A stretch of 64,000 nt of DNA, from NCBI GenBank assembly GCA_035258805.1, contig DATFWY010000251.1:843-64842 (forward strand). The letters run 5' to 3'. The notes beneath the pieces are model-generated. The model was given only the letters and a program-made list of their open reading frames with translations, made no database searches and had not been told where the DNA came from. The stretch comes from Blastocatellia bacterium. GTDB taxonomy: Bacteria > Acidobacteriota > Blastocatellia > UBA7656. Below, one piece after another: positions 21,384 through 58,032 of the stretch (the stretch's first letter is position 1; every line of letters begins with the position of its first letter). Position numbers and translations under genes: made by a program.

Positions 21384-22202
21384 TCATGGATTGCGTAACC
21401 GTCGGCTCTGGACTCGACTGGAAATAGAGCGGAAGGGTCGTTCTCCAATTTGATCCAGAACCCATCTTGTGATGCCTTCTTCGATAGGTTCCCGTTTCGG
21501 ATGCTCCGAGCGCCATACACTGAACATTGTTGTAGCAATGCCAATATCAGCGAAAACCCAGATGCGACTACTCGGATTGCGAGTTAGATTGTAAGCGGCT
21601 GCCATATCCTGAAATCCTGTTCGGTCCTCCTTGCTCACAATCAGGAGCAGAGCCGCGGATCGTTGAGCCCCTATTGCCTTCTTTGCTGATTCGCTAAGAC
21701 GACCGGATATCAAAACGATTGCTTTGATCCTTGGATCCCCTACCGAGCCGAGGATAGCCGCATCCGCGCTCTCCTCTTCTGCCACAATTGCGATCCTCGC
21801 AGGATCAACTGACTCCTGGCCGGCTAGAAACTTGATTGCTCCTCTGACATCGAGGTAGATCTTAGACAACTCGTCGGAGCTGAACGAATGCAACTCCTTT
21901 TTACCCATGCTACTCCCACGACCACGAAGATCTATGCGAAGCGTGGACACACCTTTCCCGCCGATGATCTGTGCAAGGCCGGGATACAGATACTGGCCAT
22001 AGGCTTCACGGTCGTGCGCAAAAGCGTGCAGAAACAACACCGCCGGAGTCTTGTGCGTATCGTTCTTTGGAGCATTAAACATCCCTGATATGGTCCACCC
22101 GTCCTCGGTTTTAAAGGATACTTCTCGCTCGGTCGCAGCCTGATCTGCTGCTGGCTGCGCTGACGGGGTAAGTAATATCGCGAGCAACAGGATTGAGTTC
22201 AT
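21384..22202 (-). CDS. Secreted alpha/beta-hydrolase-fold protein, single A-type domain, triad absent
   Basis: Signal peptide; EVSFKTEDGW, IDLRGRGSS, RIAIVAEEES, LISGRLS. Confidence 0.85.
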   Translation of the reverse strand: MNSILLLAILLTPSAQPAADQAATEREVSFKTEDGWTISGMFNAPKNDTHKTPAVLFLHAFAHDREAYGQYLYPGLAQIIGGKGVSTLRIDLRGRGSSMGKKELHSFSSDELSKIYLDVRGAIKFLAGQESVDPARIAIVAEEESADAAILGSVGDPRIKAIVLISGRLSESAKKAIGAQRSAALLLIVSKEDRTGFQDMAAAYNLTRNPSSRIWVFADIGIATTMFSVWRSEHPKREPIEEGITRWVLDQIGERPFRSISSRVQSRRLRNP

Positions 22203-22240
22203 CTACAAGTTCCATTTAAGAAGCTATTGATCAGATCCAA

Positions 22241-23641
22241 CTACAGGTGCTCCTTCATCCACAGTGACAGGCGTGCAATCAGGTTGTGATCAAGTTCGAA
22301 TAGCTGATATCCGATCGCTCCGCCGTCATAAACTATGATTTCACTCCCTTTCGCCTTCGTGAGACCGTACATTTCGGTCAGCGCTTTTGTTACTGCTTCA
22401 TGTCCGCGGCTCGTCACATAAAGCACGGGGCGGCTTTGAGTGGCGAAGTAAGCCTTTTCCTTTTCTGTAGGAATATAACCGGTCAGCACTACAGCGGTCT
22501 TAATCCTCGGTTCCTCTGCCGCCGCCGCCATTGCGTATTTTGCGCCAATCACAGTTCCTATAATTCCGATTCGTGTTGAATCGACTTCGGGACGAGTTGC
22601 CAGGTAATTTACGGCCGCTTTTGCATCGAGATTGCCCTTATCGCGCTCTGCTTTTGACAATTCAAAGTAATGTCCCTTGCCGGTGCTCTTGCCCTTACCG
22701 CGCCAATCAATGTTCAGGACCGCGAATCCGGATCTTGCTAGAGCGAATTCGAGCTCATGATAAGCGTAGCGATCACTAAGCCCGGAATGAAGGAGAATAA
22801 CCGCCGGCACTTTTACTTCTTTTTTTTGCGGCAGTCGGAGGTTCGCATACAGCGCCCACTCATCTTCTGTTTGAAAGGACACCTCGCTAACCGTGCCGTC
22901 AGCTAAGAGCCGGTTCGCAATCCACTGACCTATTGAAGTACTAAGCGGTATTTCATCCGGGTACTTTTTACTGAAAGACTGCAACATCGCTGTTCCAATG
23001 CCAAGATCGTTGAACACACGAATCTCGGCATTACTTTCTTTGGACCGAAAATACGTGTCGGTCATATCCGCGAATCCCTTTTTGTCTTCCGCACTGACAA
23101 CAAGGAGGAGAGAAAGATCCTTCGATTTGGCAATTTGTTCCTTTGCCCCGTCGTCGAGTCTGCCAGAGAGCAAAGCAATCGCTCCGACTCGCGTATCTCC
23201 TCTGCACCCGTCGACTGCTGCCTGGGCATCGGCGCTGGCTGCTACGATACCCAAGCGCGAGGCATCGATGCCTTTTTGTGCACCCAAAAACTCGAGAGCG
23301 GCCCTGACATCAAGCCGTGTTTGGGAGAGCGCGATTCTGGACGCACCCTTCTGCTCAAGGGTTAAAGTCGCCGCACCTGCGGCGGTGATAATTGGAACGA
23401 GTTGGTTGAGGTCGGAGATAGATTTCTCTTTACCAGCTACGCGATCGATGTTGGGAGCTGGAAGGATTACGACAGCCGGTATACTATCTTGCGCGTTCTG
23501 AGGCATTGCCAGCGTTGCGTTGACGGTCTGCCCTCGCTGATTCTTAAAGGAGACAGGAAGGTCAGCGGCGAGGACTCTTCTGGTAAACAATGGGTAGAAC
23601 AGTGCGATTAAGAACAAGAAAAGCACGGCCCGTTGTTTCAT
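22241..23641 (-). CDS. Secreted tandem (A+B) alpha/beta-hydrolase-fold protein, triad absent
   Basis: Signal peptide; two domains; IDWRGKGKS, GTVIG elbow, YDGGAIGYQLF. Confidence 0.88.
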   Translation of the reverse strand: MKQRAVLFLFLIALFYPLFTRRVLAADLPVSFKNQRGQTVNATLAMPQNAQDSIPAVVILPAPNIDRVAGKEKSISDLNQLVPIITAAGAATLTLEQKGASRIALSQTRLDVRAALEFLGAQKGIDASRLGIVAASADAQAAVDGCRGDTRVGAIALLSGRLDDGAKEQIAKSKDLSLLLVVSAEDKKGFADMTDTYFRSKESNAEIRVFNDLGIGTAMLQSFSKKYPDEIPLSTSIGQWIANRLLADGTVSEVSFQTEDEWALYANLRLPQKKEVKVPAVILLHSGLSDRYAYHELEFALARSGFAVLNIDWRGKGKSTGKGHYFELSKAERDKGNLDAKAAVNYLATRPEVDSTRIGIIGTVIGAKYAMAAAAEEPRIKTAVVLTGYIPTEKEKAYFATQSRPVLYVTSRGHEAVTKALTEMYGLTKAKGSEIIVYDGGAIGYQLFELDHNLIARLSLWMKEHL

Positions 23642-36052: not shown

Positions 36053-36092
36053 GATGTTAGTGGGCGAGTCGCGAGCGCCTATGGTCCTGGTC

Positions 36093-37547: not shown

Positions 37548-37643
37548 ATTTGTCGCCTTTCAGAGCTCTTGCAGGATTGGCGGATCAGAAACTGACTGCG
37601 AAATAATAGGATCCAATCAATTCCGCGTGATCAATCAAAAGGA

Positions 37644-41108: not shown

Positions 41109-41133
41109 AATCTCCTCCCGAGAGAGGCAGTGG

Positions 41134-42633: not shown

Positions 42634-42640
42634 TGATTAG

Positions 42641-43291
42641 TCAGCGCCGCCAGAGTTTCTGAAATTTCGTCCTGCACTCTTCTTCTTCTTGCCAGGTCAT
42701 CTGTGCTTTAAAACCGGAGATGTCCCAGCCGGTGACCAGATCATTGGTGTTCGGGTTTGTGATTTGGTGTTTGTCTCTCTGTTTTAGTATTGGGACTCCA
42801 GCCTGGTCTCGCGGGATGACGTTCTCCGGATAATTCTGATAGAAGACCGTAAACACTCGTGTTCTGGTTTGACGATATACCTTTTGCAGAACCTTGAGAC
42901 GATTCTTATCGCTAATTTTGCTCCCATCTATGATTAACAGGAGGTAGTCAGCTCGGTGAGAGGGTGCAAGCTGAAGAAATGTTCTGCCCTCGAAGAATTC
43001 GGTGCTGCCTTGATTGAAGGCTTCAAGGTCGTCGTCGCTTATTCCGTCGAGCTTCTTCATGACCTCTTCAGTAATCTTGTGTTGCTCCAGGCTTTTGTAA
43101 CCCGGATCGCCTGGGTCCGTCGGGATCAGCGTGTCGCCAATCGATGCAATCATCGCGTGGCGGTCAAGCCTAGAAGCTTGATGACTTTCACTTCTTCCAT
43201 AAGCCAAGCCCGACCCGATGCTTGTGATTGCGATCGAGCCGGCGCCCGATCTCTTCAGGAATTCTCTACGGGAAACTTTGCTTTTGCTCAT
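42641..43291 (-). CDS. TAT-signal protein, gluconate-2-dehydrogenase subunit 3-like
   Basis: SRREFLK; IGDTLIP...PG; F-x-QL-x-x-x-x-R pattern; directly upstream of the GMC gene. Confidence 0.7.
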   Translation of the reverse strand: MSKSKVSRREFLKRSGAGSIAITSIGSGLAYGRSESHQASRLDRHAMIASIGDTLIPTDPGDPGYKSLEQHKITEEVMKKLDGISDDDLEAFNQGSTEFFEGRTFLQLAPSHRADYLLLIIDGSKISDKNRLKVLQKVYRQTRTRVFTVFYQNYPENVIPRDQAGVPILKQRDKHQITNPNTNDLVTGWDISGFKAQMTWQEEEECRTKFQKLWRR

Positions 43292-43358
43292 ACCTCAATC
43301 AACCTCTCACGATGCGCTCAACGATGGTGGTATTTCCAGAACCCACAAGTCCCTCAGT

Positions 43359-43658
43359 TCATAGATTACGAGTTAACTCCAACAGCTTTTGGTAGCTAAT
43401 GGCGCTCCAGGTTTCAACAGAGCTTGCCATGCCTGAAGCGAGTATGACGGAGGCCATTTTGAAGGCGGTCTCTTCATTTGGAGCCTCGAGAATATCCATA
43501 AAATCGTACGGTCCCAGCAGAGCGAGGTGTTCTCTAACATTCACCTCGGGGCAAGCTTCTCTGTACCGCGCTCCAACCTTTTTCCCGATCTCTTCCATCG
43601 ACTTGATATTCTTCGCAAGCTCCGGCGCCATCTTTATCAACATCACAAACGTTGCCAT
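43359..43658 (-). CDS. GYD-domain protein
   Basis: LLGPYDFMDILEAPNEETA; ATG 43658 after AGGAG. Confidence 0.85.
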   Translation of the reverse strand: MATFVMLIKMAPELAKNIKSMEEIGKKVGARYREACPEVNVREHLALLGPYDFMDILEAPNEETAFKMASVILASGMASSVETWSAISYQKLLELTRNL

Positions 43659-43749
43659 TTGATATCTCCTTTCAAGTGTTCGACCACGCAATGAGAGTGC
43701 GCACAAGCCGCCCTAAACAACAGGGCATGCTTTGCGAGGACGCGATCTT

Positions 43750-44136
43750 TTACTGGCTCAAAATATCAATCACGACTTCGTCCTCGACGAACTGCTTGTA
43801 CTGCTCATGCAACCGCTTGCTCTGCGGACTCTTGATGTAAGCCTCCTTGGCTTCCTTGTTCACGAAGTCGATCGACATGCCATATTTGTACTTTGTGAGA
43901 TTGCTCGTCTGCGGGCCAACCACGATATTGGTTGCGCCACTGATCGTGGGTAACGTCGCTCTTGTTTCAGCGAGAATTCGATCGATAGCAGACTGCGGCA
44001 CATCAGCCTTGAAGTTAAACGCGACCGCGTGCCGCAGAATTCCCTTCGGCGCGTTTACCGGAGGAGTCTGTTTAGCACCCACCAGCACGACCAATATCAG
44101 CAGTAGAGTCAGACAAACTGGAATCAAGCGCTTCAT
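43750..44136 (-). CDS. Secreted Dabb (stress-responsive A/B barrel) protein
   Basis: Signal peptide; LRHAVAFNFK and YGMSIDF...AY. Confidence 0.8.
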   Translation of the reverse strand: MKRLIPVCLTLLLILVVLVGAKQTPPVNAPKGILRHAVAFNFKADVPQSAIDRILAETRATLPTISGATNIVVGPQTSNLTKYKYGMSIDFVNKEAKEAYIKSPQSKRLHEQYKQFVEDEVVIDILSQ

Positions 44137-44203
44137 TGCAACCTCCTGAGTATCCTATGCGGCGGTATTAAACCGACACTCCTCATTCTGCAATTCTCTG
44201 GGG

Positions 44204-44947
44204 CTATTCCTGCCAACGAATCTTCTTGAAATAATTCCGCCGACGCTCCTCTTCACTCCAGGTGAGTGGACCGGGATAACCCGCCCTGTCCCATCCAGTG
44301 AATATCTCTTGCGTGTTCGGATTAGTGATCTGATGATCATCACCGTTGGCTAGTAGCGGCACGCGGTGCGCATCGTTCGGCCAACGATCCTCCGGGTAGT
44401 TCTGATAGTAGACCGTGAAGACGATTTCTCGAACGTGCGCGTAAATCTCCTTCAGCTTTGTCTGAAGGGTCTCATCTTTGAACCCGCCGGTTTGAAGGAT
44501 CCTGTTGAAATACTCGGCGCGTTGATTTTCTTGCAAGTGCACGAACGCGCCTCCGAGCTGCTCCGAACTTGATCGGTCGAAGAGTTCCAGATCGGCATCC
44601 GGAAATTCTTCAAGCCGGCGGTTGATCTCGTCAGTGATTCCTTTCCATTCGAGATCCCTATAGCCAGGATCTCCCGGCGCAGAAGGAATCAGCGTGTCGC
44701 CGATTGCGAAGAGTATGGCTTGCCGGTTGACCCTGGGAAAGGCTTGTTCTCTAGAAGTCGTCTGCTCTTCCGCGTCTGAACCTGAATGTAGCGTCGTAGG
44801 CGACCCCGAGGAGGGCGGCCCATCCTCAGCGGCCTTTATTCCGGCCATCCCGGCAATAGTAACTGTTCCGGCGGTCGCGGTCGTTCTTATGAAGTCGCGT
44901 CGCGAAACGCCTTTGTCCTTCTTACTCTTTCTTTTTTGCTTTGCCAT
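44204..44947 (-). CDS. TAT-signal protein, paralog of 42641-43291
   Basis: SRRDFIR; shared IGDTLIP, TVYYQNYPE, HQITNPNT and TGWD; likely ATG 44947. Confidence 0.75.
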   Translation of the reverse strand: MAKQKRKSKKDKGVSRRDFIRTTATAGTVTIAGMAGIKAAEDGPPSSGSPTTLHSGSDAEEQTTSREQAFPRVNRQAILFAIGDTLIPSAPGDPGYRDLEWKGITDEINRRLEEFPDADLELFDRSSSEQLGGAFVHLQENQRAEYFNRILQTGGFKDETLQTKLKEIYAHVREIVFTVYYQNYPEDRWPNDAHRVPLLANGDDHQITNPNTQEIFTGWDRAGYPGPLTWSEEERRRNYFKKIRWQE

Positions 44948-44995
44948 ACTCTCACTCAGGATTGGACACACTCCGTCTCTTGATCCGTTGTCGGT

Positions 44996-46462
44996 TTATA
45001 AGCTGAGTTGCGGCTTCAACCACTTCACGATAAATGGCTGAAGGTTTTCATCGAGATCGAACAGTTGATATCCGATTGAACCGCCCTCGTATTCAAGCAG
45101 TGTGCTTCCGTGATCCTTTGCCATTTTGTAGAAATCACGAAAGGCTTGGGCGATTGGAGGCAAGCCCAAAGTAGAGACGAAAAGAATCGGGAATTTCGAT
45201 TTCTCTACATCTGCTCGGTCCGGCATTCCTCCGAGCATCACAAATGACTTCACCCGAGAATCCGAGCAGGCAGCCTTCAAACCGTACTTCACTCCGATGG
45301 ATGTTGTCACCAAAGCTAGTCGATCGGAATTGACTGCAGTCTGTGCAGCAAGAAACTCCAGAGCGGCCTTGACGTCGAGATATGCTTTGTCCCGTTCCGC
45401 TATTGGGAGATCAAAGTAATTTCCCTTTTCCTGGCTTTTGCCCCGTCCACGAAAATCAAAATTAAGTACGACGAATCCCGCGGCGGATAGCAGTTGCTCG
45501 AGGTTGTCGAAAACATGGCGGTCGGTTAAATAAGAATGCACCAGTACTACTCCGGGCGCCTTGGGCTGATTCGCGCTTTGCGGCATTCGCAGAGTACCAT
45601 ACAGATTCCACCCGTCGTCTGTTCGAAAGGAAACATCCCGGGCCGAAGCGCGAAGCCTGGGCACAACCCAATCCGCGACGACAGTTTCAAGTGGTTTCTC
45701 GTTTGGGAATTTGTTGGCGTACATGATGAACATCGAATTGCCAATGCCGATGTCGCGATAAATCATCAAATCACTGGTCGGATTCGTTGATAATTTGTAG
45801 ACCTCTGCCATGTCAGCGAGTCCGATCTTGTCTTCTTTGGATGCGAGGCACAGCACCGGCAAGTCACTGCGACTCGCAATGACATCTTTTGCACCTTGAC
45901 CCAACCTCCCGGAGAGCAATACCAGCGTACGAACTCTCCGATCTTTATAAGAAGCGATCACCGCGGGTTCTGCTGTCACGCTTTCCGCGACTACTCCGAT
46001 CCGGTCCGGATCCACTATGGGCTGACGGCTAAGGAAGTCAATAGCTCCGCTCACATCGAGAGAGATTTTCGAGCGCTGCTCTGAATTGAAGGCGTTATAC
46101 TCCGTTGGCTCAGCGCTCTTACCTCTCCCTCTAATGTCGATGCGCAGCGTTGCGGTATCGCCCAACTCAGATCTTAAGCTTAGTTTTGCGAAAGTGTTTG
46201 GTCCGATCTGGTGACCTCCCAGATAGATGTCACGGTCGTGAGCGGGTGAATGAACCATGACAACCCCCGGAATCTTCCTTCCAGGGGTCAGGCCGGCGGG
46301 AATGCTTAGCGTGCCGTGAATGACCCAGCCGTCTTCGGTCTTAAAAGAAACCTCCTTCTCATCAAAATTGGACTTAGCCGCGTTTTGCTCCTGCGGGACA
46401 CCTGCGGCGAGATTCCAAAGAAGCAGTACTAATGCTGGCGCGCTGGAGAGCGCTCGTTTCAT
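44996..46462 (-). CDS. Secreted tandem (A+B) alpha/beta-hydrolase-fold protein, catalytic His absent
   Basis: Signal peptide; AESVT and TTSIG elbows; YEGGSIGYQLF. Confidence 0.88.
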   Translation of the reverse strand: MKRALSSAPALVLLLWNLAAGVPQEQNAAKSNFDEKEVSFKTEDGWVIHGTLSIPAGLTPGRKIPGVVMVHSPAHDRDIYLGGHQIGPNTFAKLSLRSELGDTATLRIDIRGRGKSAEPTEYNAFNSEQRSKISLDVSGAIDFLSRQPIVDPDRIGVVAESVTAEPAVIASYKDRRVRTLVLLSGRLGQGAKDVIASRSDLPVLCLASKEDKIGLADMAEVYKLSTNPTSDLMIYRDIGIGNSMFIMYANKFPNEKPLETVVADWVVPRLRASARDVSFRTDDGWNLYGTLRMPQSANQPKAPGVVLVHSYLTDRHVFDNLEQLLSAAGFVVLNFDFRGRGKSQEKGNYFDLPIAERDKAYLDVKAALEFLAAQTAVNSDRLALVTTSIGVKYGLKAACSDSRVKSFVMLGGMPDRADVEKSKFPILFVSTLGLPPIAQAFRDFYKMAKDHGSTLLEYEGGSIGYQLFDLDENLQPFIVKWLKPQLSL

Positions 46463-46521
46463 AAATCAGTTCTCCTTTTGAAACAGCAACGGTTTCACCT
46501 CGATCATGGCCGAGATCCTGA

Positions 46522-47412
46522 TTATTTCCCGAAGGACTCAGCAAGGTAACGGGCCACCAGTTCCGACTCTGACCATGTCAACTGCGCGCCGCGTGACACC
46601 ATGTCGTGAACTGTTCGTTTCCAGCCTTCTGGTTCCTTTCTCTGACCAGTGATCGTTTGCAAGCTGTGACATTGAACACATGTTGCAAGGATGAGGCCCT
46701 TTCCTTCTTTGTCTGGAAGCAGCGCCGATAGATCGGCTGGCCTGGATGCATTCCCAGTTGAACCAGCTGAAGATCGGCCGCTTTGGGAGACACCGTCGGG
46801 CCCAAAATTCGTCGCAAGGTATTCAACAACTGTGGCTATTTCTTCGGGGCGCAGATTGGCGCCGAGACGTACCATGTCTTTCACGCTTGCAAGCCAACCG
46901 GAAGAATCCTTTCGTTTCGTCGTTATACGGTTCAAAGCATGGCAATCAACACAGGATCTCCGGATGATTCCCTTCGCAGCACCCTCGGGCAGGCTTTCTG
47001 TCGACGCCTGTTCGCGCTGACCCGCGGCGGCCTTGCCTGCGATCTCGGATTTTTCATTTGTTGATCCGGAACCTGCCGACCCAGGGCCAAAGCTTTGTGA
47101 CAGGTAAGTTGAAATCAATTCGATTTCGTCGGGGGCAATCTGCGCGCCTCGCGCGATCATGTCCCTGACAGTCCTCACCCACTGAACCTCGCTCTTGCGT
47201 TGCAACACAATCGGACCGAGCGAGTGACATTGTGTACAGGTCGCGATCACAAGATTTCTTCCAGCACCATCGGGCAATGAACTGGTTCTATCCCGGCTGC
47301 CAACTTCGATGGGAACCTGAGCGCGAAGGACAACGGATCCAACGCACAGAGCATAGGCGACCACAAAAGCGGCTCGTAGTTTTGGCATTTTGGAGATCAT
47401 ATGAGTGTTCAC
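46522..47412 (-). CDS. Secreted triheme cytochrome c (three tandem monoheme modules)
   Basis: CTQCH, CVDCH and CVQCH, each followed by W-x3-V-x2-M; Ser/Gly linkers. Confidence 0.9.
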   Translation of the reverse strand: MNTHMISKMPKLRAAFVVAYALCVGSVVLRAQVPIEVGSRDRTSSLPDGAGRNLVIATCTQCHSLGPIVLQRKSEVQWVRTVRDMIARGAQIAPDEIELISTYLSQSFGPGSAGSGSTNEKSEIAGKAAAGQREQASTESLPEGAAKGIIRRSCVDCHALNRITTKRKDSSGWLASVKDMVRLGANLRPEEIATVVEYLATNFGPDGVSQSGRSSAGSTGNASRPADLSALLPDKEGKGLILATCVQCHSLQTITGQRKEPEGWKRTVHDMVSRGAQLTWSESELVARYLAESFGK

Positions 47413-47433
47413 CGCTTGCTAGTGAAGCTGTCC

Positions 47434-49332
47434 CTAAACCTTCTTCGTTCGTCGTTCGGCGACCGAGTAGCGCGGATACCATGTTGATTCAGATCCTATT
47501 CCGCTGCGTTCGATCACGACATCAACAATGTAAGGCCTTCCATCGCGCGTTGCTTTTACCCCGCGCTGAAGGGCTGCACGCAGGCCGTCTGGATTTGTCA
47601 CCGCTTCGCCCGCGATTCCAAAACCGGCGCCGATCCTGGCGAAATCAACGTCTGGGCTTCCCAGGTAACACGCCATATCTTTTCCGGTTTGCCCTTGTTT
47701 TCCCATTTTGCCGAGAATTCGCTGTCGAGGTTCGTTGTAACCTCGATTATTGAAGACCACCGTAATTACCGGGACCTCATAGCGCGCCATGCTCCACAAT
47801 GCAGGTAAGCCGCCAAACATGAAGGCTCCGTCGCCTATAACCGAGACCACCTGTCTATTCGGCTGAGCGAGCTTGGCCCCGATCGACAGCCCCACTCCCC
47901 ATCCAAGCGCCTGTTGCTGAGAACGTCCGATACGCAGTCGTCCGTTATCGCCTGTACGAAGATAACTGAAGAGTTTCGACTTTTCTGTGCTCAATTCATC
48001 GACTATCAGCGCATCCTTGTCAATTGCGTTATCGATCTCCATTGCGAGACGCTGCCAGGAGATCGGATTATTGTCCCAATTTCCCTTGGCTACTGCGCTA
48101 AGAGAATCCTGCATCGATTTGTTGAATGCGGCTATCGCTTCGATTCGAGGCTTAGCTATTCCGGCCAGTCGCTCCTTGGTCGCCGTGCTCTTTATCGCTG
48201 TGATTATGTCGCGTACTCCGAGCCGAACGTCGGCCAGCATTGGCAGCTCCACCGAGTAGGCTTTATTGATCTCGTCGGATTCAGTGGTGATTTGAATCAC
48301 CTTTGTGTTTCCGGGACTAGGAAGGAATCCTCCGAGTACCAGCAACACATCGGCGGCTCTCGGGAATCGAGTATTCGGAGTGTGCTCGGCGTTGATGAAC
48401 AACGGGTGTGCTGTCGGAAAACAGTCGACCCAGGAATCAATCAGCACTCGCATTGCGGGAATCCCGAGCAACTCCGCAAGCTCTATACATTCGGGCCGCG
48501 CCCCGCTAGTCCACGCTTCAGGGCCCGCATACAAGCACGGGTTCTTAGCCTCCAGCAGCATGCGGGCCGCCGTTTCCACTGCGGCAGCCGGCGGCCTGAT
48601 CGCAGCGGGGATGTTGAACTTTTCCTGGGGAACGATCGTAGCGGCGACATCCTTGCGAACAAGTACGTCTTCGGGATAGGTCGTGAGCACCGGTCCACCC
48701 GGCGGAGTGGTCGCTACCTTTATTGCTCGGCGCGTGACGTCGGTTATCACGTCTGATTGTGATACGAGCCAATGCCATTTTGATGTTGCCCCGGCTGTAT
48801 TCAGCAGGACTCTCCCTTCGTAGATGCCAGTTTGATCCTCAAACTCCGTTGGGACCATATCAGTGGCGACGATGATCGGTAGCCGAGCCGACCGCGCGTT
48901 AAACATATTCGATGATGCATGAGGTGCTCCTGCGACTGACATCATAGCTACGCCAATCTTGCCTGATGCCATAGCGATGCCCGAGGCAATCGCAACGCCC
49001 TGACCTTCTTCAACCGCTAGAACCAGGTGCATTCGCGGATGGTCGACGAGAGCGTCATAAACACCACGCGAATGCGATGAGTTGCCGACCACAACGAATT
49101 CAGCCCCGGCCGCGCACCACTGCTCAACCAGTACTTCTCCTCCGGTGCCTTGCATCGTCTTTACACCGTTAGCTCCCTCACCTACGAGCTCTGTCCCCGC
49201 GGCAGTCAGCGGACTCAAGGATTCCAATACAGCGTTTGCTGCAACTGTGCTGAAACCAGCGGCCGCCATTTTCTTCAGAAACCCGCGGCGGGATAGACCA
49301 TTGTTCAGGTAACGCATCACCAGGTCTCGCAT
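47434..49332 (-). CDS. Thiamine diphosphate-dependent enzyme (benzoylformate decarboxylase-like) with TAT signal
   Basis: SRRGFLKK; LAVEEGQGVAIASG; GDGAFMFG...VVFNNRGY. Confidence 0.9.
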   Translation of the reverse strand: MRDLVMRYLNNGLSRRGFLKKMAAAGFSTVAANAVLESLSPLTAAGTELVGEGANGVKTMQGTGGEVLVEQWCAAGAEFVVVGNSSHSRGVYDALVDHPRMHLVLAVEEGQGVAIASGIAMASGKIGVAMMSVAGAPHASSNMFNARSARLPIIVATDMVPTEFEDQTGIYEGRVLLNTAGATSKWHWLVSQSDVITDVTRRAIKVATTPPGGPVLTTYPEDVLVRKDVAATIVPQEKFNIPAAIRPPAAAVETAARMLLEAKNPCLYAGPEAWTSGARPECIELAELLGIPAMRVLIDSWVDCFPTAHPLFINAEHTPNTRFPRAADVLLVLGGFLPSPGNTKVIQITTESDEINKAYSVELPMLADVRLGVRDIITAIKSTATKERLAGIAKPRIEAIAAFNKSMQDSLSAVAKGNWDNNPISWQRLAMEIDNAIDKDALIVDELSTEKSKLFSYLRTGDNGRLRIGRSQQQALGWGVGLSIGAKLAQPNRQVVSVIGDGAFMFGGLPALWSMARYEVPVITVVFNNRGYNEPRQRILGKMGKQGQTGKDMACYLGSPDVDFARIGAGFGIAGEAVTNPDGLRAALQRGVKATRDGRPYIVDVVIERSGIGSESTWYPRYSVAERRTKKV

Positions 49333-49417
49333 TGGAGTTCTCCTTCGTCTGTTTCCACGTCAGACTCTTTGCACCGGGTTCCGATCCAGCTTTACCGATC
49401 CATCACTTCGAGAAACC

Positions 49418-50908
49418 TCAACGATTTGCCGATTTACTCTTCTCGAGTCTATCCAATTCTCGTTCAAGCCAAACCGGACGAGTAATTGTTGGCGTAGGTA
49501 TTGGAATCGAATAGTTCGGGTGATAGCTTATGTCTATTACCTGCCCATCCTTTAACACTGCAGTCACACGTTGAGCATTACGAATATCGTCGAGCGGGTT
49601 GGCGCTAACCACGATCATATCCGCTCGTTTGCCTGGCTTGATGGTCCCGAGTTCCCTACCCTTTCCGAGGAATTCGGCATTGTCGCGAGTTGCGATTGTA
49701 ATCGCCTGCATCGGCGTGAATCCTGCGTCAACCAGAAACATCATCTCTCTTTGCAGGCTCAATCCAGGAACGGACAGGAAGGTGTCAGAGCCCGCCACTA
49801 TTTTTCCGCCGGCCTTGTAGAACGCCTTCAAAAGATCCTGTATTTTCTTGTAGCCCACGCGCATCTCAGCCAGGTCGTCTGCGCTCTTGAGTTTGTAAAC
49901 GATTGAGGTAGCCCACATCTTCTTGACGTCGTCCGGAACATAGGCCAGTTGCGGATTCCTGGAATACTCAGCGTCTTCACGAGCGAAATCGTCCCGCCTT
50001 TCCGTAGCCATTCTCCACCAACTGGACATAGTCGGTATCAACGCGACCTTCTTGCCAGCGAGGTATTTCGCAAGTTGTTCCGCTTTGACTGGATCAATCT
50101 TCGAAAATGACTTGATGTCATTGATGAACATCTGCAATTCATTCGGTGTTGACGTGAGTCGCCGGGGATAGTCAGTGAGAGCCTGGACGATTCCGCTCGC
50201 GTGTTCAAGGCCGTCGATGCCTGCGTCCGCAGCTTCACGAGCATCTACGCTCCTCAGATGTCCCGTGACAGGTATCCCAAGCTTGTGCGCTTCTTCGATG
50301 ATTGCTTTCAAAAGCTCCGGAGTGATCTTCTCACGCACCTTGATGGCCGATGCTCCCTTGCCGTGAAGCAGATCCACCGCGCGCTTCGCCTGCGTCTCGT
50401 TTTCAACGGCGACGTGCGTTTCCCTGGCCGGCGGCGGCGTGTCCAGTCCGTCACCAACGTAGAAGATCCGAGGTCCGCGTATCCTTCCTTGCTCAACAGC
50501 GGCGCTGACATCGGCGATCCATTGAAGGTCATTACCAAGATCTTTAACAGTGGTTACCCCATTCGCTAAGAAGAGCTCGCCCATCCAATCGTGGTAATGT
50601 ACGTGCATATCGATCAGACCGGGAAGAACGAACTTGCCCGTGGCATCTACGATCTTTGTTGCCTTGGGAAACTTCGCCGTAGCCTTTGTTCCGATTTGCG
50701 CGATCTTATTGCCTTTGATTAGAACGACTGAATCCGGGATCGGCGGCCCGCCGTTTCCATCGATGAGTGTCCCGCCAATTACGGCAACCATCTGCTCGGG
50801 TTGTGCAATGGATTGAGTGCTTGCTCCCGATTGTATCAGGCCGAGAATAGACAGAGATAAGCAAACAACTCGCAGCATTCTGCGAAGGCCGAGGTGCGTT
50901 CCCTTCAT
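49418..50908 (-). CDS. Secreted amidohydrolase
   Basis: Signal peptide; PGLIDMHVH, TGH, LEH, GSD, GKRAD. Confidence 0.92.
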   Translation of the reverse strand: MKGTHLGLRRMLRVVCLSLSILGLIQSGASTQSIAQPEQMVAVIGGTLIDGNGGPPIPDSVVLIKGNKIAQIGTKATAKFPKATKIVDATGKFVLPGLIDMHVHYHDWMGELFLANGVTTVKDLGNDLQWIADVSAAVEQGRIRGPRIFYVGDGLDTPPPARETHVAVENETQAKRAVDLLHGKGASAIKVREKITPELLKAIIEEAHKLGIPVTGHLRSVDAREAADAGIDGLEHASGIVQALTDYPRRLTSTPNELQMFINDIKSFSKIDPVKAEQLAKYLAGKKVALIPTMSSWWRMATERRDDFAREDAEYSRNPQLAYVPDDVKKMWATSIVYKLKSADDLAEMRVGYKKIQDLLKAFYKAGGKIVAGSDTFLSVPGLSLQREMMFLVDAGFTPMQAITIATRDNAEFLGKGRELGTIKPGKRADMIVVSANPLDDIRNAQRVTAVLKDGQVIDISYHPNYSIPIPTPTITRPVWLERELDRLEKSKSANR

Positions 50909-50927
50909 GTTCTGTTCTCCTGAAAAC

Positions 50928-51389
50928 CTATTTCGGCAGGTTCGTAGCTTGATGCGCTACCAGTCTCCACTGACCCTGCTGTTTCACGTAAACACGCAGA
51001 AAGCGGTTTTGCACAGTGTAATCCTGTCCCTGGTATTTCGCGTTGATGGTGTTTCGGCCCGCCAGGATTGCAGTATTGCCGTATACCTTGGCGACTACAT
51101 CGTCTCTTTCAATAGACAGGTATGTGCGGTCGCCCGCTTTGAACCCGGCTATGACCTCTGCTTTTGTTTCGACCTTCCCTGTCGGGTGTACATACGTACA
51201 GTCATCGGCAAGTATGCGGCTCAGGGCCGCGGTGTCGCCGTGCATGTAGGCCTCGGCTCGCTCAGTATCTACTTTCAACACTTCTTCCTCGGCTTTAACA
51301 TCGGCTGGCGTGCGCTTACTGTTCTCCTGGGCTTTGATTGAAAACACGGAAAGAAAAATTAAAGCACCAACAAAAGCGATCCGCTTCAT
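50928..51389 (-). CDS. Secreted NTF2-like (DUF4440) protein
   Basis: Signal peptide; ILADDCTYVHPTG, VYGNTAIL, WRLVAHQAT. Confidence 0.9.
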   Translation of the reverse strand: MKRIAFVGALIFLSVFSIKAQENSKRTPADVKAEEEVLKVDTERAEAYMHGDTAALSRILADDCTYVHPTGKVETKAEVIAGFKAGDRTYLSIERDDVVAKVYGNTAILAGRNTINAKYQGQDYTVQNRFLRVYVKQQGQWRLVAHQATNLPK

Positions 51390-51542
51390 ATCTTTTACAT
51401 CCTCCTTTGCAAAGTGCGCCTTGGCAAGAAGGCAACTTGCTCACTTATTCCACTCTCTCAAAGACTGTGTGAGAAATCATGAATACCACCGATGGGGCAG
51501 TGGGTGGTATTCAGGGCTTCACCCAGCCTCCCATGAATCGTC

Positions 51543-53021
51543 TCACTTTGTTTCTACCGATGTCTCGACTCCGGAGAGCATTTCGTCCAGAGTTGACCTG
51601 GGAATCAATTTGCCGCCGAGCACGACTGCGGCGATCCTCCTGGTGTTCCTGATTTCCTCAAGCGGATTGCCATCCAATAACACCAGGTCCGCTATCTTGC
51701 CCTTTTCAACTGTGCCGAGCGAGTCAAGCAATCCAAAGTACTCAGCAGGATTGCGCGTTGCGCAGCGGAGCGCGTCTACTGGAGTAAGTCCAGCCTTGAC
51801 CAGCAGAGCGAGCTCGTCGTGCAGGCTGAAGCCTGGATATTCGTAAAGACCGGCGGTATCGGTACCGGCCAGTAGCTTTACGCCGGATTTGTGCATCGCT
51901 CTTATGAGCCGTAATTGAGCCTCGAAAAGTCTTTGACGTTCAGGAAAGTACTCAGGATCAAACCCTTTCAAAAGAGCCGCCTTCTGGACCTTCCAGGAAT
52001 CTTTCCTTTCGCGGGGGATGTACTTGAGCCGAGAATCGTTGAGGAAATAGCGGTCATCAGTCATTGCGAGGTTTTGCCAGCCAACGAGTGTGGGCGTCTG
52101 CCAGGTACCGTTCTTAACAAAATGTGCAAAAAGGGCAGCCGCATTCTTGTCGTCGTAGGTATCGAGGGTCTTCAATTCGGTCCTTATTTCAGCGCCAACG
52201 AAAACAGACAGGCCCGATTTGGCGACTGTCGCGTTCGCTTCATCATGCAAGGCGTCGGCATTCTTGGAGCACGCAGAAACAACTCCAAAGAGGTGTTCGA
52301 GAGATTTCTGTCCAGCATCCGACGCTTCGGAAGCAGTGACGCTTGCGGGTACGTGGCCGGCAAACGAGAGGCCCTGTTTCTTTGCCTGCTCCGCAACAGC
52401 GAAGTACGATTCCCGCGGCAGCATTGAATAGACTTTTATGAAATCTGCGCCCTGCTGCTTTAGGTTATCCACCGCTTGCCGGGCTTCGATCGCGTTCTCA
52501 ACATTCAGAGAAGTTCGCCGTCCTATTTTGCGTGGTCCATCTACAATTACACCGGCGGCGAAGATGCGAGGGCCAATCAAAGTGCCATTGGCTATCTGTT
52601 TGCGCCACTCTTTGAGCTGTACAAACTCTTCCGGATTCCCGCCCATCTCGCGTATACCGGTCACACCGTTGGCGATGAAAAGCGCCAAAAACTCCATATA
52701 TGAGATGTGTGCGTGCATGTCCCACAGACCCGGAATCAAGAACTTGCCGCTTCCATCAAAGCGCTTGACATCCTTCGGCGCTTTGACATTATCGGTCGTA
52801 CCGATTTCCTTGATTCGATCGCCGACGATCACCACGGTCGTGTCACGGATGAGCCGGGCTCCAGTAGTGTCGACTACGGTGACGTGTGTTATAACGAGAG
52901 GAATTTTGGCCTCGCCTTTTAGTTGGGCAACCAAGAACGTACTGAGCGCAAAAATAATTAGAAGCGCAATGACAATCATCATTGCCGCCGTTAAGCGTCG
53001 AGATATTCCTTGTTCGCACAT
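51543..53021 (-). CDS. Secreted amidohydrolase
   Basis: PGLWDMHAH, FIKVY, FAGH, LEH, AGTD, GKIADLV. Confidence 0.92.
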   Translation of the reverse strand: MCEQGISRRLTAAMMIVIALLIIFALSTFLVAQLKGEAKIPLVITHVTVVDTTGARLIRDTTVVIVGDRIKEIGTTDNVKAPKDVKRFDGSGKFLIPGLWDMHAHISYMEFLALFIANGVTGIREMGGNPEEFVQLKEWRKQIANGTLIGPRIFAAGVIVDGPRKIGRRTSLNVENAIEARQAVDNLKQQGADFIKVYSMLPRESYFAVAEQAKKQGLSFAGHVPASVTASEASDAGQKSLEHLFGVVSACSKNADALHDEANATVAKSGLSVFVGAEIRTELKTLDTYDDKNAAALFAHFVKNGTWQTPTLVGWQNLAMTDDRYFLNDSRLKYIPRERKDSWKVQKAALLKGFDPEYFPERQRLFEAQLRLIRAMHKSGVKLLAGTDTAGLYEYPGFSLHDELALLVKAGLTPVDALRCATRNPAEYFGLLDSLGTVEKGKIADLVLLDGNPLEEIRNTRRIAAVVLGGKLIPRSTLDEMLSGVETSVETK

Positions 53022-53054
53022 AATCGCTGGGATGCCCGCTTTAATTCTGAGCGT

Positions 53055-53930
53055 TCAATCTACCGATCTCGGAGCGTTCTTCTCTTTACGCGTCCGGTTG
53101 CCAAGTGTTGCCGATAACCAGGAACCAACCATCTCTTCTATGGGCGGTTCGTTTGGAAACTCGAATCGCCAGGTGCTGAACATCGTGGTCCCCATCGCAA
53201 GCCCATCAAAAACCTGTATCCGGCTGTTCCCGTTTTTTGAAGCGAGATAAGCGTCGACCATATCCTTGAGCCCAGGCTTGTCTTCCTTACTGACGAGACA
53301 AAAGATCGGTTTGCGGGTCCTGGAAAATGCATCTACGGCAAAGCGATTGAGACGACCAGAGATCAGAACGCAAGCGACGACGTGTTTGCTTGTTGCAGCC
53401 GCAGTCAAAACGGCGCCGGCAGTATCCTGTTCCCCTACGATGCCAATGTGATTTCGCTTAACTCCTGTTTGCGCTAGGAACTGAAGCGCGGCTTTAACGT
53501 CCAATAGAACGGCCTCCCGCTGCTCCGGAGCCATCGAATGAAATCTCTGCGGCTCGCGACTGGCTCCTCGCCCGCGAATGTCAATTCTAAGCGTCGCAAG
53601 CCCATGGCTGGATAACGTATCTGCCAGGCTGGGGGTCGAAATCTGGCCAAAGGCGTCGGATTCGTGTCTTGAGCCGTGCACCAGGACGACGCCGGGCACC
53701 CTGCCGCTACTTCGCGGGATGTGAAGCGTTCCGATAATTCGCCAACCGTCCTTCGTTTTGAATTCGACTGTTTCCTCGCACCCCAGATCTGCGGCTGACG
53801 CTGCGCTAGCCGCGATGGATGATGCGTTTGAACCCATCTCGCTGCTTCGACGTTGCTCGACCGCACCTGACGCGAATCCTGCTGTGTTCGTCGATTTGGA
53901 TTTCACTGGGCTACACCAGCTTTGAGCCAT
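53055..53930 (-). CDS. Alpha/beta-hydrolase-fold protein, single A-type domain, triad absent
   Basis: VEFKTKDGW, IDIRGRGAS, GEQDT elbow, GLAMGTTMF. Confidence 0.85.
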   Translation of the reverse strand: MAQSWCSPVKSKSTNTAGFASGAVEQRRSSEMGSNASSIAASAASAADLGCEETVEFKTKDGWRIIGTLHIPRSSGRVPGVVLVHGSRHESDAFGQISTPSLADTLSSHGLATLRIDIRGRGASREPQRFHSMAPEQREAVLLDVKAALQFLAQTGVKRNHIGIVGEQDTAGAVLTAAATSKHVVACVLISGRLNRFAVDAFSRTRKPIFCLVSKEDKPGLKDMVDAYLASKNGNSRIQVFDGLAMGTTMFSTWRFEFPNEPPIEEMVGSWLSATLGNRTRKEKNAPRSVD

Positions 53931-55240
53931 TCAACGACTAATGGCTCAAGCTTCGGGTCTAATTCGAAAAGCTGATAACCGATAGCGCCGCCGTCGTACA
54001 TAAGAAGACGCGTCAACTTGTCGGGCGTCGCTTCGTACAATGCTCGCATGATCTGAGTCACCTGCTTATGTCCGGTGCAGGTCACGTACAGAGTATGAAC
54101 CGCACCGCTGGTCAGGTAATCGCGTTCTTTGTCATCGACCGGTATGTATCCGGTCAACAATGCCAGAGCTTTGACGCGCGAATCTCCTATCGATCCGCGC
54201 ACTGCATGCTCGGCGCCGTGAACAACGCCGACAACCCCAACTCTATCTCGATCGACTCCGTCCTGTGACGTCAGAAAATCAATTGCCGCCTTTGCATCGA
54301 GCCTGCCATTAGCACGCTCCTCTTTCGAAAGATCGAAATACTTACCTTTGCTGGTGCTCTTGCCCCGGCCTCGCCAATCGATATTGAGCACGGCGAATCC
54401 TTCTCGCACAAGTAATCGTTCGAGACTTGCGAACACATATCGATCGCTGCGTCCGGAGTGCAGCAACACCGCGCCGGGTGACGGCCAGACATCGGTATCG
54501 GGGAACAGCAAATTGCCGAAGATCTCCCAACCATCTTCGGTTGTGAAGGAAACCTCACGCTCGCGGCCTACTGAAGAAAGCTGACGGCGAATCCATCCAG
54601 CTATCAGTTGCTCAATCGGTTCGCGATCCGGAAAACGGAATGCCCACTTCTCAATCATCCGCTCCCCGCGTCCCATCCCTTCGAAGACATGCAAGTCTGT
54701 ATCTGGATGGTTCGAGGAAAGATAAATGTCGGTCATGTCTCTCAAAGAAGCCTTGTCCTCGCTGCTCGCTATACACAAAACAGGGTCATCCTGCCACTCG
54801 GTAAGAAATTGCTTCGCGGTACTGCTCAATCGACCCGACAAGAACACGAAAGACCTGACTTGCGAAAAGGCGCGTGAGCCAAGGACTGCCGCGTCTGCAG
54901 CGCCTTTTTCGGCAATGATCGCGATGCGATCGCCGACACCCTGCCTGGCAGACAACAGCTCCACGGCCGATCTCACCGATTTCACCTGCCGGTCCGATTT
55001 ATGCAGTGAGTCCTTCTCTGTTCTTCTGTTGTTCTCAACTGTCTTATCTCGAAGCTCAACCCAATGAAACGACAAACCGGCAGATTCAATAGCCACAGAA
55101 AGCCGGTTGCTGGGAGCGATCGAGCTTCCGCGGCCATTTTTCCGGGAGGCTCGCGAAGACCTGAGCATTAGAACGCTACCAAGCGAGCTGGTTAAGCCCG
55201 TAGGATTCAAAGCGTCCACTTGTTCGTCCTTTATTCCCAA
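53903..55240 (-). CDS. Tandem (diverged A + B) alpha/beta-hydrolase-fold protein, triad absent
   Basis: AEKGA and GVVHG elbows; EVSFTTEDGW; YDGGAIGYQLF. Confidence 0.85.
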   Translation of the reverse strand: MGIKDEQVDALNPTGLTSSLGSVLMLRSSRASRKNGRGSSIAPSNRLSVAIESAGLSFHWVELRDKTVENNRRTEKDSLHKSDRQVKSVRSAVELLSARQGVGDRIAIIAEKGAADAAVLGSRAFSQVRSFVFLSGRLSSTAKQFLTEWQDDPVLCIASSEDKASLRDMTDIYLSSNHPDTDLHVFEGMGRGERMIEKWAFRFPDREPIEQLIAGWIRRQLSSVGREREVSFTTEDGWEIFGNLLFPDTDVWPSPGAVLLHSGRSDRYVFASLERLLVREGFAVLNIDWRGRGKSTSKGKYFDLSKEERANGRLDAKAAIDFLTSQDGVDRDRVGVVGVVHGAEHAVRGSIGDSRVKALALLTGYIPVDDKERDYLTSGAVHTLYVTCTGHKQVTQIMRALYEATPDKLTRLLMYDGGAIGYQLFELDPKLEPLVVEWLKAGVAQ

Positions 55241-55307
55241 TGCTAACTTTTCGATAACATTCCTAGGTGCAATCGTGACCGTCCCAGGAAAGATTGATAA
55301 TTACGTG

Positions 55308-56795
55308 CTAAGGGCACGTCGCGCCGCTGACGCCAACTTCCTTGAGTTCTGAGCGATGAACTTCGAGCTGCTTTTTGAACCACGAGACTATAGTTGGCTC
55401 GAGTTCTCTGTCCTCACGAAAACGTAAGTACGCTACGATGCTGCCTGGATACGTAAGCACCTTGTTTGAGTAATTCTCCGCGACGGTAGAAGCGAAATTC
55501 CTTGTCAGCTCCCCCATTCCGTCACCGGTAACGACAAGAACAGGTTGCTTGATTGAACTCAGAGTGTCCCGGTCGCCCGCATCGCTCCACGCCCACACCA
55601 CGGGATCGAGCATCCCAATTGCTCTCAAGTTCGGATTCTCTTTTGCGCCGTTTAGAGCATAGTTAGCCGCGAGCAATGCACCCAGAACACCTATTCGATC
55701 AGCATCGACACCATTGCACGAAGTGAGCACCTGATAGCCTCTATGAAGGTCGCGTCGTCCCGCCATGATTTCTGCGAGACTTTGGTCAATGTATGACCCT
55801 TTGTTGATGCTTTTGCCGATGCCCCGATATTCAAGGTTAAGAAAGGCTATGTTATTGGCCAGCAGCAATCGCTCGAGATTCCGATAGATGTTTCGATCAG
55901 TTAGCGCGGTGGGTAGGAGGATTACTCCGGGAACTGTCTGTCCACGATCTATTGCTTCCGGTAAACCGAGATTTGCGTAGAGTATCCATCCGTCCTCGGT
56001 TTCAATTGTTATCTCGCGAACGTTGCCCAAAAGTCGAAGCTGCTCTTCCAGCCAGGCCCCCGCGGCGAAGTCCAACGCGTTCTCTATAGGCCGGTCGGCA
56101 TATCGATTGCGCCACATATTACACATCGTGACGCCTACGCCGAGACCGTCCTGCACCCAAATATCGCTTTGCGGGTTTTTATTCAAACTGTAAGCCTTGG
56201 TCATATCAGCGAAGCCTCGCTTGTCTTCTTTGCTGACGATGAACAGCATCGGCTTGTTTCTGTTTCCAGCTAACACCTCCATTGCGCTCTGAGACAGAAT
56301 TCCGGAGAGAAGCACCAGAACACCGACCCGCGAATCTTGCATGGCGCCTATCACTGCAGGTCCGGCGCTGAACTCTTCGGCCACGACTCCAATGCGTCTG
56401 TGATCCACCTCATCCTGCGTGCCGATAAAGTCGAGCGCGGCCCGGACGTCCAGCACAACCTTGTCGCGCTCGGCCTGAGGCATTTCTATGAATGGAGTTC
56501 CTCCTTCGCTTTTCCCGCGTCCTCGTATGTCGATCCGCAACGTGACCACAGATTCCTGAAGCTTCGCCCAACCGGGAAAGCTGACCCAAACTGACCGCGA
56601 GTGCATTGAAGAGTGAAGCAGAAGGACAGCGGGACGCCTCTCCGATTTGGGCTGCTTCGACGGGATGGTGAGGGAACCACTAATGGTCCAGCCATCTTCA
56701 GTAACAAAGGTCACTTCTTTCTGAATTGAATCTGGCTTCAAATAGAAACCAGCCGGCTTGTCGTCCTTCTCATTCATTATCTGGTTGAACTTCAT
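55308..56795 (-). CDS. Tandem (A+B) alpha/beta-hydrolase-fold protein, triad absent
   Basis: EVTFVTEDGW, AEEFS and GALLA elbows, YPGSIV. Confidence 0.85.
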   Translation of the reverse strand: MKFNQIMNEKDDKPAGFYLKPDSIQKEVTFVTEDGWTISGSLTIPSKQPKSERRPAVLLLHSSMHSRSVWVSFPGWAKLQESVVTLRIDIRGRGKSEGGTPFIEMPQAERDKVVLDVRAALDFIGTQDEVDHRRIGVVAEEFSAGPAVIGAMQDSRVGVLVLLSGILSQSAMEVLAGNRNKPMLFIVSKEDKRGFADMTKAYSLNKNPQSDIWVQDGLGVGVTMCNMWRNRYADRPIENALDFAAGAWLEEQLRLLGNVREITIETEDGWILYANLGLPEAIDRGQTVPGVILLPTALTDRNIYRNLERLLLANNIAFLNLEYRGIGKSINKGSYIDQSLAEIMAGRRDLHRGYQVLTSCNGVDADRIGVLGALLAANYALNGAKENPNLRAIGMLDPVVWAWSDAGDRDTLSSIKQPVLVVTGDGMGELTRNFASTVAENYSNKVLTYPGSIVAYLRFREDRELEPTIVSWFKKQLEVHRSELKEVGVSGATCP

Positions 56796-58016: not shown

Positions 58017-58032
58017 GAATCTTAACAACACA

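Follow-up and report, generated by a model that had tools for sequence, protein, structure and literature searches.

What does an α/β-hydrolase fold do once its catalytic triad has gone? The question is raised by a 64,000-nucleotide stretch of a Blastocatellia bacterium genome (contig DATFWY010000251.1 of assembly GCA_035258805.1; hereafter the window), in which seven paralogous genes encode α/β-hydrolase-fold domains of two types, A and B. An earlier note on this DNA had proposed that the genes form a locally expanded family of pseudo-enzymes, or of enzymes with a novel chemistry. Our alignments indicate that the proteins are not serine or cysteine hydrolases, and that most A domains carry a set of strictly conserved polar residues in the former catalytic pocket. 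The reading we favor, with a probability of roughly 45%, is that these intact A domains hold a neofunctionalized, non-serine active site in a fixed assembly with non-catalytic α/β partner domains.

Seven genes encode twelve α/β-hydrolase domains

All seven open reading frames (ORFs), named here by their first coordinate, exist as previously listed, on the minus strand (Table 1). Their 12 domains are indeed arranged as five A-B fusions of 445-495 amino acids (aa) and two lone A domains of 272 and 291 aa. A profile of the A domain matches all 12 with E-values from 1e-17 to 1e-106, and homology among them is, by this sequence measure, far above chance. Identity among the paralogous domains is 30-44% for A and 32-53% for B. 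Signal peptides had been assigned to three genes and denied to four. Those of 22241 and 44996 look clear, judged by eye only; by the same judgment the hydrophobic N-terminus of 21384, which has no charged n-region, is a weak candidate.

Pfam gave only weak, generic matches (DLH, Abhydrolase_6, AXE1, Hydrolase_4), mostly to the N-terminal half of a domain. NCBIfam returned nothing above its cut-offs, the best match, to the UilS lactonase, scoring 57 bits where the cut-off is 400, and the best PDB sequence match (E 4e-26), to an esterase, spans half of a B domain. Neither a family-specific model nor a close solved homolog was found in Pfam, NCBIfam or PDB. We modeled gene 39636 with AlphaFold2, using 79 family sequences; the model reached a predicted local distance difference score (pLDDT) of 94.5 and a predicted template modeling score (pTM) of 0.91. 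It contains two canonical, lid-less, 8-stranded α/β domains, with the strand and helix order of the fold running twice through the chain. In the modeled A domain, DSSP places β5 at residues 114-124 and a helix from 127, with Glu125 at the elbow; Asp175 follows β7 at the acid position, and the post-β8 loop (200-206) has Met204 at the canonical His position. In the modeled B domain β5 spans 371-381, Tyr382 forms the elbow, the next helix starts at 383, Phe432 takes the acid position after β7 and Val461 lies in the post-β8 loop. The Foldseek comparison that the earlier note had suggested confirmed the fold. The top matches are all α/β hydrolases, and the nearest solved structures are esterases (PET46 8b4u, TTL lipase, Pf2001, feruloyl esterases; E 6e-15, target-normalized TM-score ~0.7, identity 15-20%). 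PDB sequence and Foldseek searches yielded no triad-less homolog among solved structures, but bona fide esterases only, again at 15-20% identity. We found no paper on the family in the literature on non-catalytic α/β folds, on clusters in Acidobacteria with GMC flavoproteins or exported thiamine diphosphate (ThDP) enzymes, or on nucleophile-elbow substitutions. The family is uncharacterized, and of a kind already known: triad-less α/β-fold proteins.

The catalytic triad is absent from both domain types

A profile search over 1.84 billion representative proteins supplied family members together with their nearest outgroup, single-domain proteins of ~250 aa with a full triad (IVGASIGAN / VASxxDxxS / NAGHGTxMF). 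Because this triad-bearing outgroup falls in the same columns, the register of the triad positions in the A domain is fixed. Hidden Markov model alignment to solved esterases places their GLSMG Ser and GGDH His on the same elbow and post-β8 columns. We call an A domain intact if it has Glu124 plus Glu or Gln at 125, the nucleophile position. Among 114 such domains position 125 is Glu in 94 and Gln in 20. The canonical-His column is I/V/M/F/L, with His in 1 of the 94 Glu-Glu-type domains; Asp175, at the acid position, is present in all 114, its canonical His partner absent. Read in these columns, the A domain has exchanged Ser for Glu or Gln and the loop His for an aliphatic residue (Ile, Val, Met or Phe), while the Asp is retained. 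B domains align with Y/D/V/A/I/S at the nucleophile, F/H/I/L at the acid and L/I/V at the His position, so that all three triad positions are lost.

The window domains follow this pattern. An alignment of all 12 with MAFFT reproduced every His-loop and elbow string listed before (the elbows being AEEES, AASAD, GTVIG, AEEVS, GTYLG, AESVT, TTSIG, GEQDT, AEKGA, GVVHG, AEEFS and GALLA). Along the seven genes, in order, the nucleophile position of the A domains reads E, S, E, S, Q, K, E, and a catalytic His in the post-β8 loop is found in 0 of the 12 domains. Ser occupies the nucleophile position in three domains (A of 22241, and A and B of 44996), in each case with no His partner. It is replaced in the orthologs seen of 22241 A and 44996 A, and across B it occurs in only 6 of 115 domains. 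The claim that a Ser/Cys-His-Asp triad is missing holds for all 12 domains and family-wide. Neither a Ser or Cys nucleophile at the elbow nor an Asp-nucleophile arrangement (carboxylate with canonical His and acid) was found, and 20 A domains have Gln at the elbow. The companion claim, that no domain has a His, is correct for the canonical loop but not for the pocket region as a whole, where a different His is conserved.

Two new residues are invariant in the A pocket

This residue, His45, is present in 114/114 intact A domains, versus 3/32 outgroup proteins and 0/115 B domains. Its place is on the loop after β3, two positions beyond the oxyanion residue; in PET46 and TTL the aligned residue is the final Gly of the HGFTG motif. 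Otherwise position 45 is Arg, Gly or Ser in the outgroup, and Ser or Thr in all 115 B domains. Among intact A domains, invariance is limited to ten columns: His45, Asp73, Arg75, Gly76, Arg77, Gly78, Asp100, Glu124, Ser148 and Asp175. Compared with the outgroup, two of the ten, His45 and Glu124, are new. Glu124 is the residue just before the nucleophile position and, as part of the definition of an intact domain, is found in 114/114. The co-occurrence of His45 and Glu124 has a Fisher p-value of 3e-34, uncorrected for phylogeny.

The neighbors of these residues in the pocket vary by orthogroup, for example V/F/E/A/I/Y at position 126 and T/A at 206. An invariant core with variable neighbors is the pattern expected of enzyme paralogs. 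The A pocket has the look of a functional, strongly selected site rather than a decayed one, and the conservation of His45 and Glu124 argues against simple inactivation.

Degenerate A domains occur beside intact ones

Two A domains of the window, those of 22241 and 53903, have no His45 and have scrambled elbows; we denote such domains A*. Each A*-B gene is directly followed by a lone intact A gene (22241 by 21384, 53903 by 53055), and the window can therefore be read as five units with one intact A site each. In the 22241 orthologs of three related genomes (G014, G046 and G031) His45 is retained; it is lost in the copy of this genome.

The B domains share a signature of their own: S/T-D-R, RGRGKS..KG.Y and G-Y-Q-L-F. 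Scanning one genome per species gave 37 loci, and we read the same alignment columns in them. The 53903-type B has G-x-x-H-G-A, with His at nucleophile+1, in 20/21 loci; its acid position reads x-G-H-x in 16/18. These conserved His residues mean that B is not featureless, and its pocket residues differ between orthogroups. The 53055-type A is recognized across loci by H-E-R, E-Q-D-T, S-x-E-D-R and G-x-G-T/I-T-M.

The two genes are adjacent or overlapping in metagenome-assembled genomes (MAGs) labeled Acidimicrobiia/Ilumatobacter, Chloroflexota, Burkholderiales, Acidobacteriota and others, and cross-phylum orthologs of 53055 have a 53903-like gene alongside every time. On two metagenome contigs the genes overlap by 4 nucleotides (nt). 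An A*-B-A fusion of the two is seen in a Dormiibacterota MAG (L035, a single frame of 727 aa) and in a representative protein, P0127 (681 aa). Conserved adjacency and fusion are classical evidence that the products work together.

Interpretation of the family

We favor a neofunctionalized A site because of its invariant new polar residues and variable neighbors, the occurrence of degenerate copies only beside intact ones in the window, the cross-phylum pairing and fusion, and the enzymatic neighborhoods of the genes. The A domain would derive from small DLH/feruloyl-esterase-like α/β hydrolases and would have replaced the triad's Ser-His half by a new polar site within that pocket. This site would comprise His45 from the post-β3 loop with Glu124 and Glu/Gln125 on the elbow; the Ser172-x-x-Asp175 motif is retained, and a metal is possibly bound. 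B would be a diverged partner α/β domain. The working unit would then be one intact A site plus B, either in a single A-B chain or as an A*-B chain with a separately encoded A, and its chemistry may be of a carboxylate/imidazole kind, acting on intermediates of the accessory catabolic pathways around the genes, whose other products include amidohydrolases, Amidohydro_2, a luciferase-like oxidoreductase, a CoA ligase and periplasmic oxidoreductases of GMC/ThDP type. Between the two options of the earlier note, pseudo-enzyme or novel chemistry, the invariant His45 and Glu124, the A*/A pairing and its recurrence across phyla tilt the balance to a rebuilt functional site, with catalysis as a prediction. 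A narrower formulation is slightly more tentative. It holds that the post-β3 His, Glu124 and Glu/Gln125, perhaps with Asp175 or a metal, form an undescribed catalytic center in an obligate A-B or A*-B+A enzyme/pseudoenzyme heteromer, which in several phyla would carry out a non-esterase step in the catabolism of amide or carboxylate compounds.

Several points weigh against an active site in A. First, His45, Glu124, Glu125 and Asp175 are placed close together on the strength of canonical topology and the HGFTG-loop alignment. Second, the elbow residue switches between Glu and Gln, so there is no universal nucleophile. Third, we know of no precedent for an α/β hydrolase recruiting a catalytic His from the post-β3 loop. 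Two window A domains (22241 and 53903) lack the site, and the covariation statistics for His45 and Glu124 carry no phylogenetic correction. Finally, a conserved polar pocket would be equally expected of a specific ligand- or metal-binding protein.

The last point leads to the strongest alternative, which we consider possible though less probable than either form of the catalytic reading: that the family consists of true pseudoenzymes, non-catalytic modules whose ligand is a partner protein or a small molecule (for instance a metal or protonated amine in the acidic A pocket). Their possible roles include those of a carrier, sensor, chaperone or extra subunit, for example as a hitch-hiking or maturation partner of a complex of GMC flavoprotein, small subunit and cytochrome exported by twin-arginine translocation (TAT), or of the amidohydrolases. 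The Ser-His pair is gone in all domains, and in B all three triad positions are. The signal-less 39636 directly follows a signal-less GMC gene near small-subunit genes with twin-arginine (RR)-type N-termini, an order kept on other contigs. The pTM of 0.91 is consistent with a rigid A-B pseudo-dimer, as for a scaffold, and some copies are seemingly exported while others are not. However, five separate non-enzyme units within one catabolic island would be unusual, and a strictly invariant His/Glu/Asp set with variable neighbors is more typical of catalysis. The A*-B/A pair is also found without GMC, TAT or cytochrome genes, which excludes it as a dedicated subunit of that complex. Precedents for a lost nucleophile come from eukaryotes, where DPP6/DPP10 and the neuroligins have kept the fold and act as binding partners (PMC4350108, on DPP10; PMC5943944). 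These belong to other subfamilies (S9 and cholinesterase-like), show no rebuilt His/Glu site and are encoded outside catabolic operons. As judged from the alignments, what sets the A-B family apart from a plain pseudoenzyme is its invariant His/Glu replacement, together with a conserved unit that is either split or fused.

It is improbable that the proteins are ordinary esterases or lactonases with an alternative Ser/Cys-His-Asp triad, such as Ser127 or Ser148 with His45 and Asp46. Public records do call the genes dienelactone hydrolases, His45, Ser148 and Ser172 are conserved in A, and Ser127 occurs in 84 of the 94 Glu-Glu-type domains. But position 127 (nucleophile+2) is where the elbow takes a small residue, and many members have G/A/T/D there; Ser148 and Ser172 are as conserved in the triad-bearing outgroup, which marks them as ancestral structural residues. 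We rejected triads built on Ser127, Ser148 or Ser172 on these grounds. No Ser or Cys co-varies with His45, and B has no candidate set at all. Lastly, that the genes are decaying relics of a duplicated esterase family with no current function, as the strongly degenerate A domains of 22241 and 53903, the B domain of 55308 and a neighboring luciferase-like (LLM) gene in two ORFs might suggest, is effectively refuted by conservation: all seven ORFs are intact, orthologs (50-66% identity) with conserved order exist in other genera and families, and the new residues show no variation in 114 domains or between phyla.

Relation to known enzymes

The solved feruloyl-esterase/MGL-like hydrolases (PET46 8b4u, MHETase MHT043-5 9pjb, TTL lipase 7q4h/9h0z, Est1E 2wtm) have in common with the family the lid-less 8-stranded fold, the D-x-R-G-x-G-x-S motif after β4 and the strand-elbow-helix geometry. 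They keep G-x-S-x-G, Asp and His, whereas the family has Glu/Gln (A) or Tyr/Asp/Val/Ala (B) at the elbow and aliphatic residues for His. Closest to A (E 1e-21 to 1e-30) is the ~250-aa outgroup, which consists of MAG proteins, one labeled Planctomycetes and some named 'dienelactone hydrolase'. It shares Ser172, Asp175, Thr206, Met208 and the D-R motif with A, but keeps a complete triad and has no Glu124, His45 in only 3/32 and no fused B domain. Asp-nucleophile hydrolases (epoxide hydrolases, haloalkane dehalogenases) also have a carboxylate at the elbow instead of Ser. These enzymes retain the post-β8 His that activates water, whereas the A domains are without it and their elbow can be Gln.

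An analogy for the proposed unit, though unrelated in fold and chemistry, is the Ltp2 aldolase. It has a thiolase fold without the Cys nucleophile, is catalytic, forms a heteromer with the non-catalytic ChsH2-DUF35 and is found in catabolic clusters. A thiolase-like gene adjoins the 22241/21384 pair, and another contig has thiolase/ChsH2-type genes in the vicinity of family members.

The α/β-hydrolase fold is among the best-studied enzyme scaffolds, and nearly all of its chemistry proceeds through a nucleophile-His-acid triad. The family would represent either a catalytic solution new to this fold or a clear-cut bacterial case of an enzyme turned ligand-binder, and its tandem or split multi-domain unit, found across phyla among catabolic enzymes, makes it worth testing. 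The public labels of its genes, 'dienelactone hydrolase', 'acetyl esterase' or 'hypothetical', matter in practice: the first two are almost certainly wrong and mislead pathway prediction for Blastocatellia and Acidimicrobiia MAGs.

Distribution and age

The family is rare. At E <= 1e-30 it comprises 68 clusters at 50% identity among the 1.84 billion representatives, and its members are carried by 4/61 related genomes, with 8-19 domain matches each at the same threshold, and by 2/401 genomes sampled across the phylum. The closest homologs are, by public names, from Blastocatellia/Pyrinomonadaceae, all of them MAGs or metagenome contigs. Within the whole 8.26-Mb assembly, family members are confined to the window, other A-profile matches being weak, partial and to ordinary hydrolases. 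Orthologs of the island's TAT-ThDP enzyme (68-83% identity) occur in exactly the four family-carrying related genomes. The family does mark this system, as had been supposed, and is a sharp marker of an accessory island of ~30-45 kb with the TAT-ThDP enzyme, GMC flavoprotein, triheme cytochrome and several amidohydrolases.

The supposed local expansion, taken as a recent one, did not stand. BLAST gave orthologs (46-66% identity) of six of the seven paralogs in G046, a genome from a different family of the same class, and a 21384-type ortholog from G046 (locus L004) is present in our tree. Five of the seven window paralogs group there with orthologs from other genomes of this bacterial class and not with one another; the other two have BLAST orthologs. 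The leaf labeled W_55308_A is the B domain of 55308 and its position was disregarded. Identity is about 50-66% between orthologs versus about 30-45% between paralogs. Furthermore, window positions 36093-63192 are collinear with 9.5-38 kb of G046:C144. Ortholog grouping and collinearity show that the paralogy is old, and a recent local expansion is ruled out by synteny and tree.

One contig carrying the 53903/53055 pair belongs to a MAG labeled 'uncultured Clostridia' (L030). Its pair is 64% identical to that of the window and its amidohydrolase 52%, with the Acidimicrobiia copies at ~43%. The identity to the window is far above that of the Acidimicrobiia copies; probably the contig is acidobacterial DNA binned wrongly, not a Clostridia sequence.

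Genomic context

Five of the seven paralogs lie in one co-directional block (Table 1). It encodes MFS transporters, three Amidohydro_1 enzymes with hydrophobic N-termini, SnoaL and DUF4440 proteins, a GMC flavoprotein, two Gluconate_2-dh3-like small subunits, GYD and Dabb proteins, a triheme cytochrome c, a ThDP enzyme, a split luciferase-like oxidoreductase, an Amidohydro_2 enzyme and two paralogs of 484 and 545 aa. The remaining pair, 22241/21384, is adjoined by a second gene group, in which a TetR-like regulator and a DUF35-like protein were also read from sequence. The order A-B, A, CoA ligase, transporter, thiolase-like gene is repeated in G014, and an AMP-binding gene also follows an A*-B/A pair on an unrelated contig. 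Other linkages recur as well. A GMC gene precedes a 39636-type A-B gene on other contigs; an amidohydrolase gene precedes two or three A-B genes, after which come MFS and TetR genes, beside beta-oxidation/ChsH2-like genes; and the A*-B/A pair is found with Amidohydro_2, TauD, AMP-binding and LLM genes. All contexts seen are rich in catabolic enzymes, with Amidohydro_1/3, Amidohydro_2, LLM, AMP-binding, TauD and GMC recurring.

Table 1. Family genes and neighboring features of the window
Feature	Coordinates	Strand	Description
21384, stand-alone A (272 aa)	21384..22202	minus	Intact site: LHAFAHDR (His45-equivalent), AEEES, SKEDR, His loop GIATTMF; orthologs in G014, G031, G046
22241, A*-B fusion (466 aa)	22241..23641	minus	Signal peptide; A* degenerate: NIDR without His45, elbow AASAD; B: GTVIG, SRGHE, AIGYQLF
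39636, A-B fusion (490 aa)	39636..41108	minus	No signal peptide; A: GHDR, AEEVS, SKEDK, GMGTTMF; B: GTYLG, SRGFA, AVGYQLF; 25 nt downstream of GMC flavoprotein gene
44996, A-B fusion (488 aa)	44996..46462	minus	Signal peptide; A: AHDR, AESVT; B: TTSIG; between triheme cytochrome c gene and TAT small-subunit gene; ortholog G046 17894-19432, 59% identity
53055, stand-alone A (291 aa)	53055..53930	minus	Glu-Gln type: RHES, GEQDT, SKEDK, AMGTTMF; partner gene of 53903
53903, A*-B fusion (445 aa)	53903..55240	minus	TTG start; A* degenerate: RASR, AEKGA, GRGERMI; B: GVVHG, CTGHK (His at nucleophile+1 and at acid position), AIGYQLF
55308, A-B fusion (495 aa)	55308..56795	minus	No signal peptide; A intact: MHSR, AEEFS, SKEDK, GVGVTMC; B, the most divergent: GALLA, SIVAYLRF; ortholog G046 47557-49047, 50% identity
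Co-directional block	34553..63192	minus	~24 genes, gaps <= ~190 nt, five of seven paralogs
Genes adjoining 22241/21384	15895..21297	minus	Thiolase-like, membrane transporter, AMP-binding CoA ligase (Pfam-confirmed)
484-aa protein	36093-37547	minus	Paralog of the 545-aa protein
Gluconate_2-dh3-like small subunits	42641-43291, 44204-44971	minus	RR-type N-termini; paralogous
GYD- and Dabb-domain small proteins	43359-43706, 43750-44136		Flanked by the two small subunits
ThDP enzyme	47434-49332	minus	SRRGFLKK-type (RR, TAT-like) N-terminus
LLM gene	56839-57841	minus	Two overlapping ORFs: 57479-57841 (Pfam positions 1-116), 56839-57624 (114-308)
545-aa protein	61555-63192	minus	Paralog of the 484-aa protein

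Several neighbors deserve mention in their own right. In a PDB search the closest matches of the ThDP enzyme are BbmA and benzoylformate decarboxylase (E ~1e-30); an exported ThDP enzyme is unusual. The GMC protein has only a weak PDB match, to a chloramphenicol-inactivating oxidoreductase. PDB searches with the GMC protein, the ThDP enzyme and the 484-aa protein gave no pointer to the substrate of the pathway. The two small-subunit genes stand between the GMC and triheme cytochrome genes; other contigs have one small subunit and two GYD genes instead. The 484- and 545-aa proteins, ~30% identical, bracket the co-directional block. Neither has a Pfam match, and the 484-aa protein, which was searched alone, has no PDB sequence match. 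In the syntenic island of G046 the two are kept at 70-77% identity, and they form a further family tied to the same system. The ortholog of the LLM gene in G046 is a single intact ORF of 334 aa, and the split in the window suggests either a frameshift or faulty assembly.

More distant relatives were also seen. Single-domain proteins of ~255 aa (P0203, P0210, P0213, P0228, P0239 and others) have the elbow I-L-G-T-x-x-T-A-R, with no Ser, and the loop N-A-G-E/K/I-G-S, in which Glu or Lys takes the place of the catalytic His. By its motifs this subfamily looks like a second, independent triad loss within the same clade. A distant tandem member, P0126 (493 aa; locus L014, gene 8001-9482 of a 1.29-Mb ENA contig), has elbows GSRFS and AATFA and loops GYGTTM and GRGTAM. 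Its neighbors include a quinohemoprotein amine dehydrogenase alpha-like gene, an amidohydrolase, a cyclase, a cytochrome c, an FAD oxidoreductase, BKACE and a TRAP transporter, and the locus suggests a wider triad-less clade tied to amine or amide catabolism.

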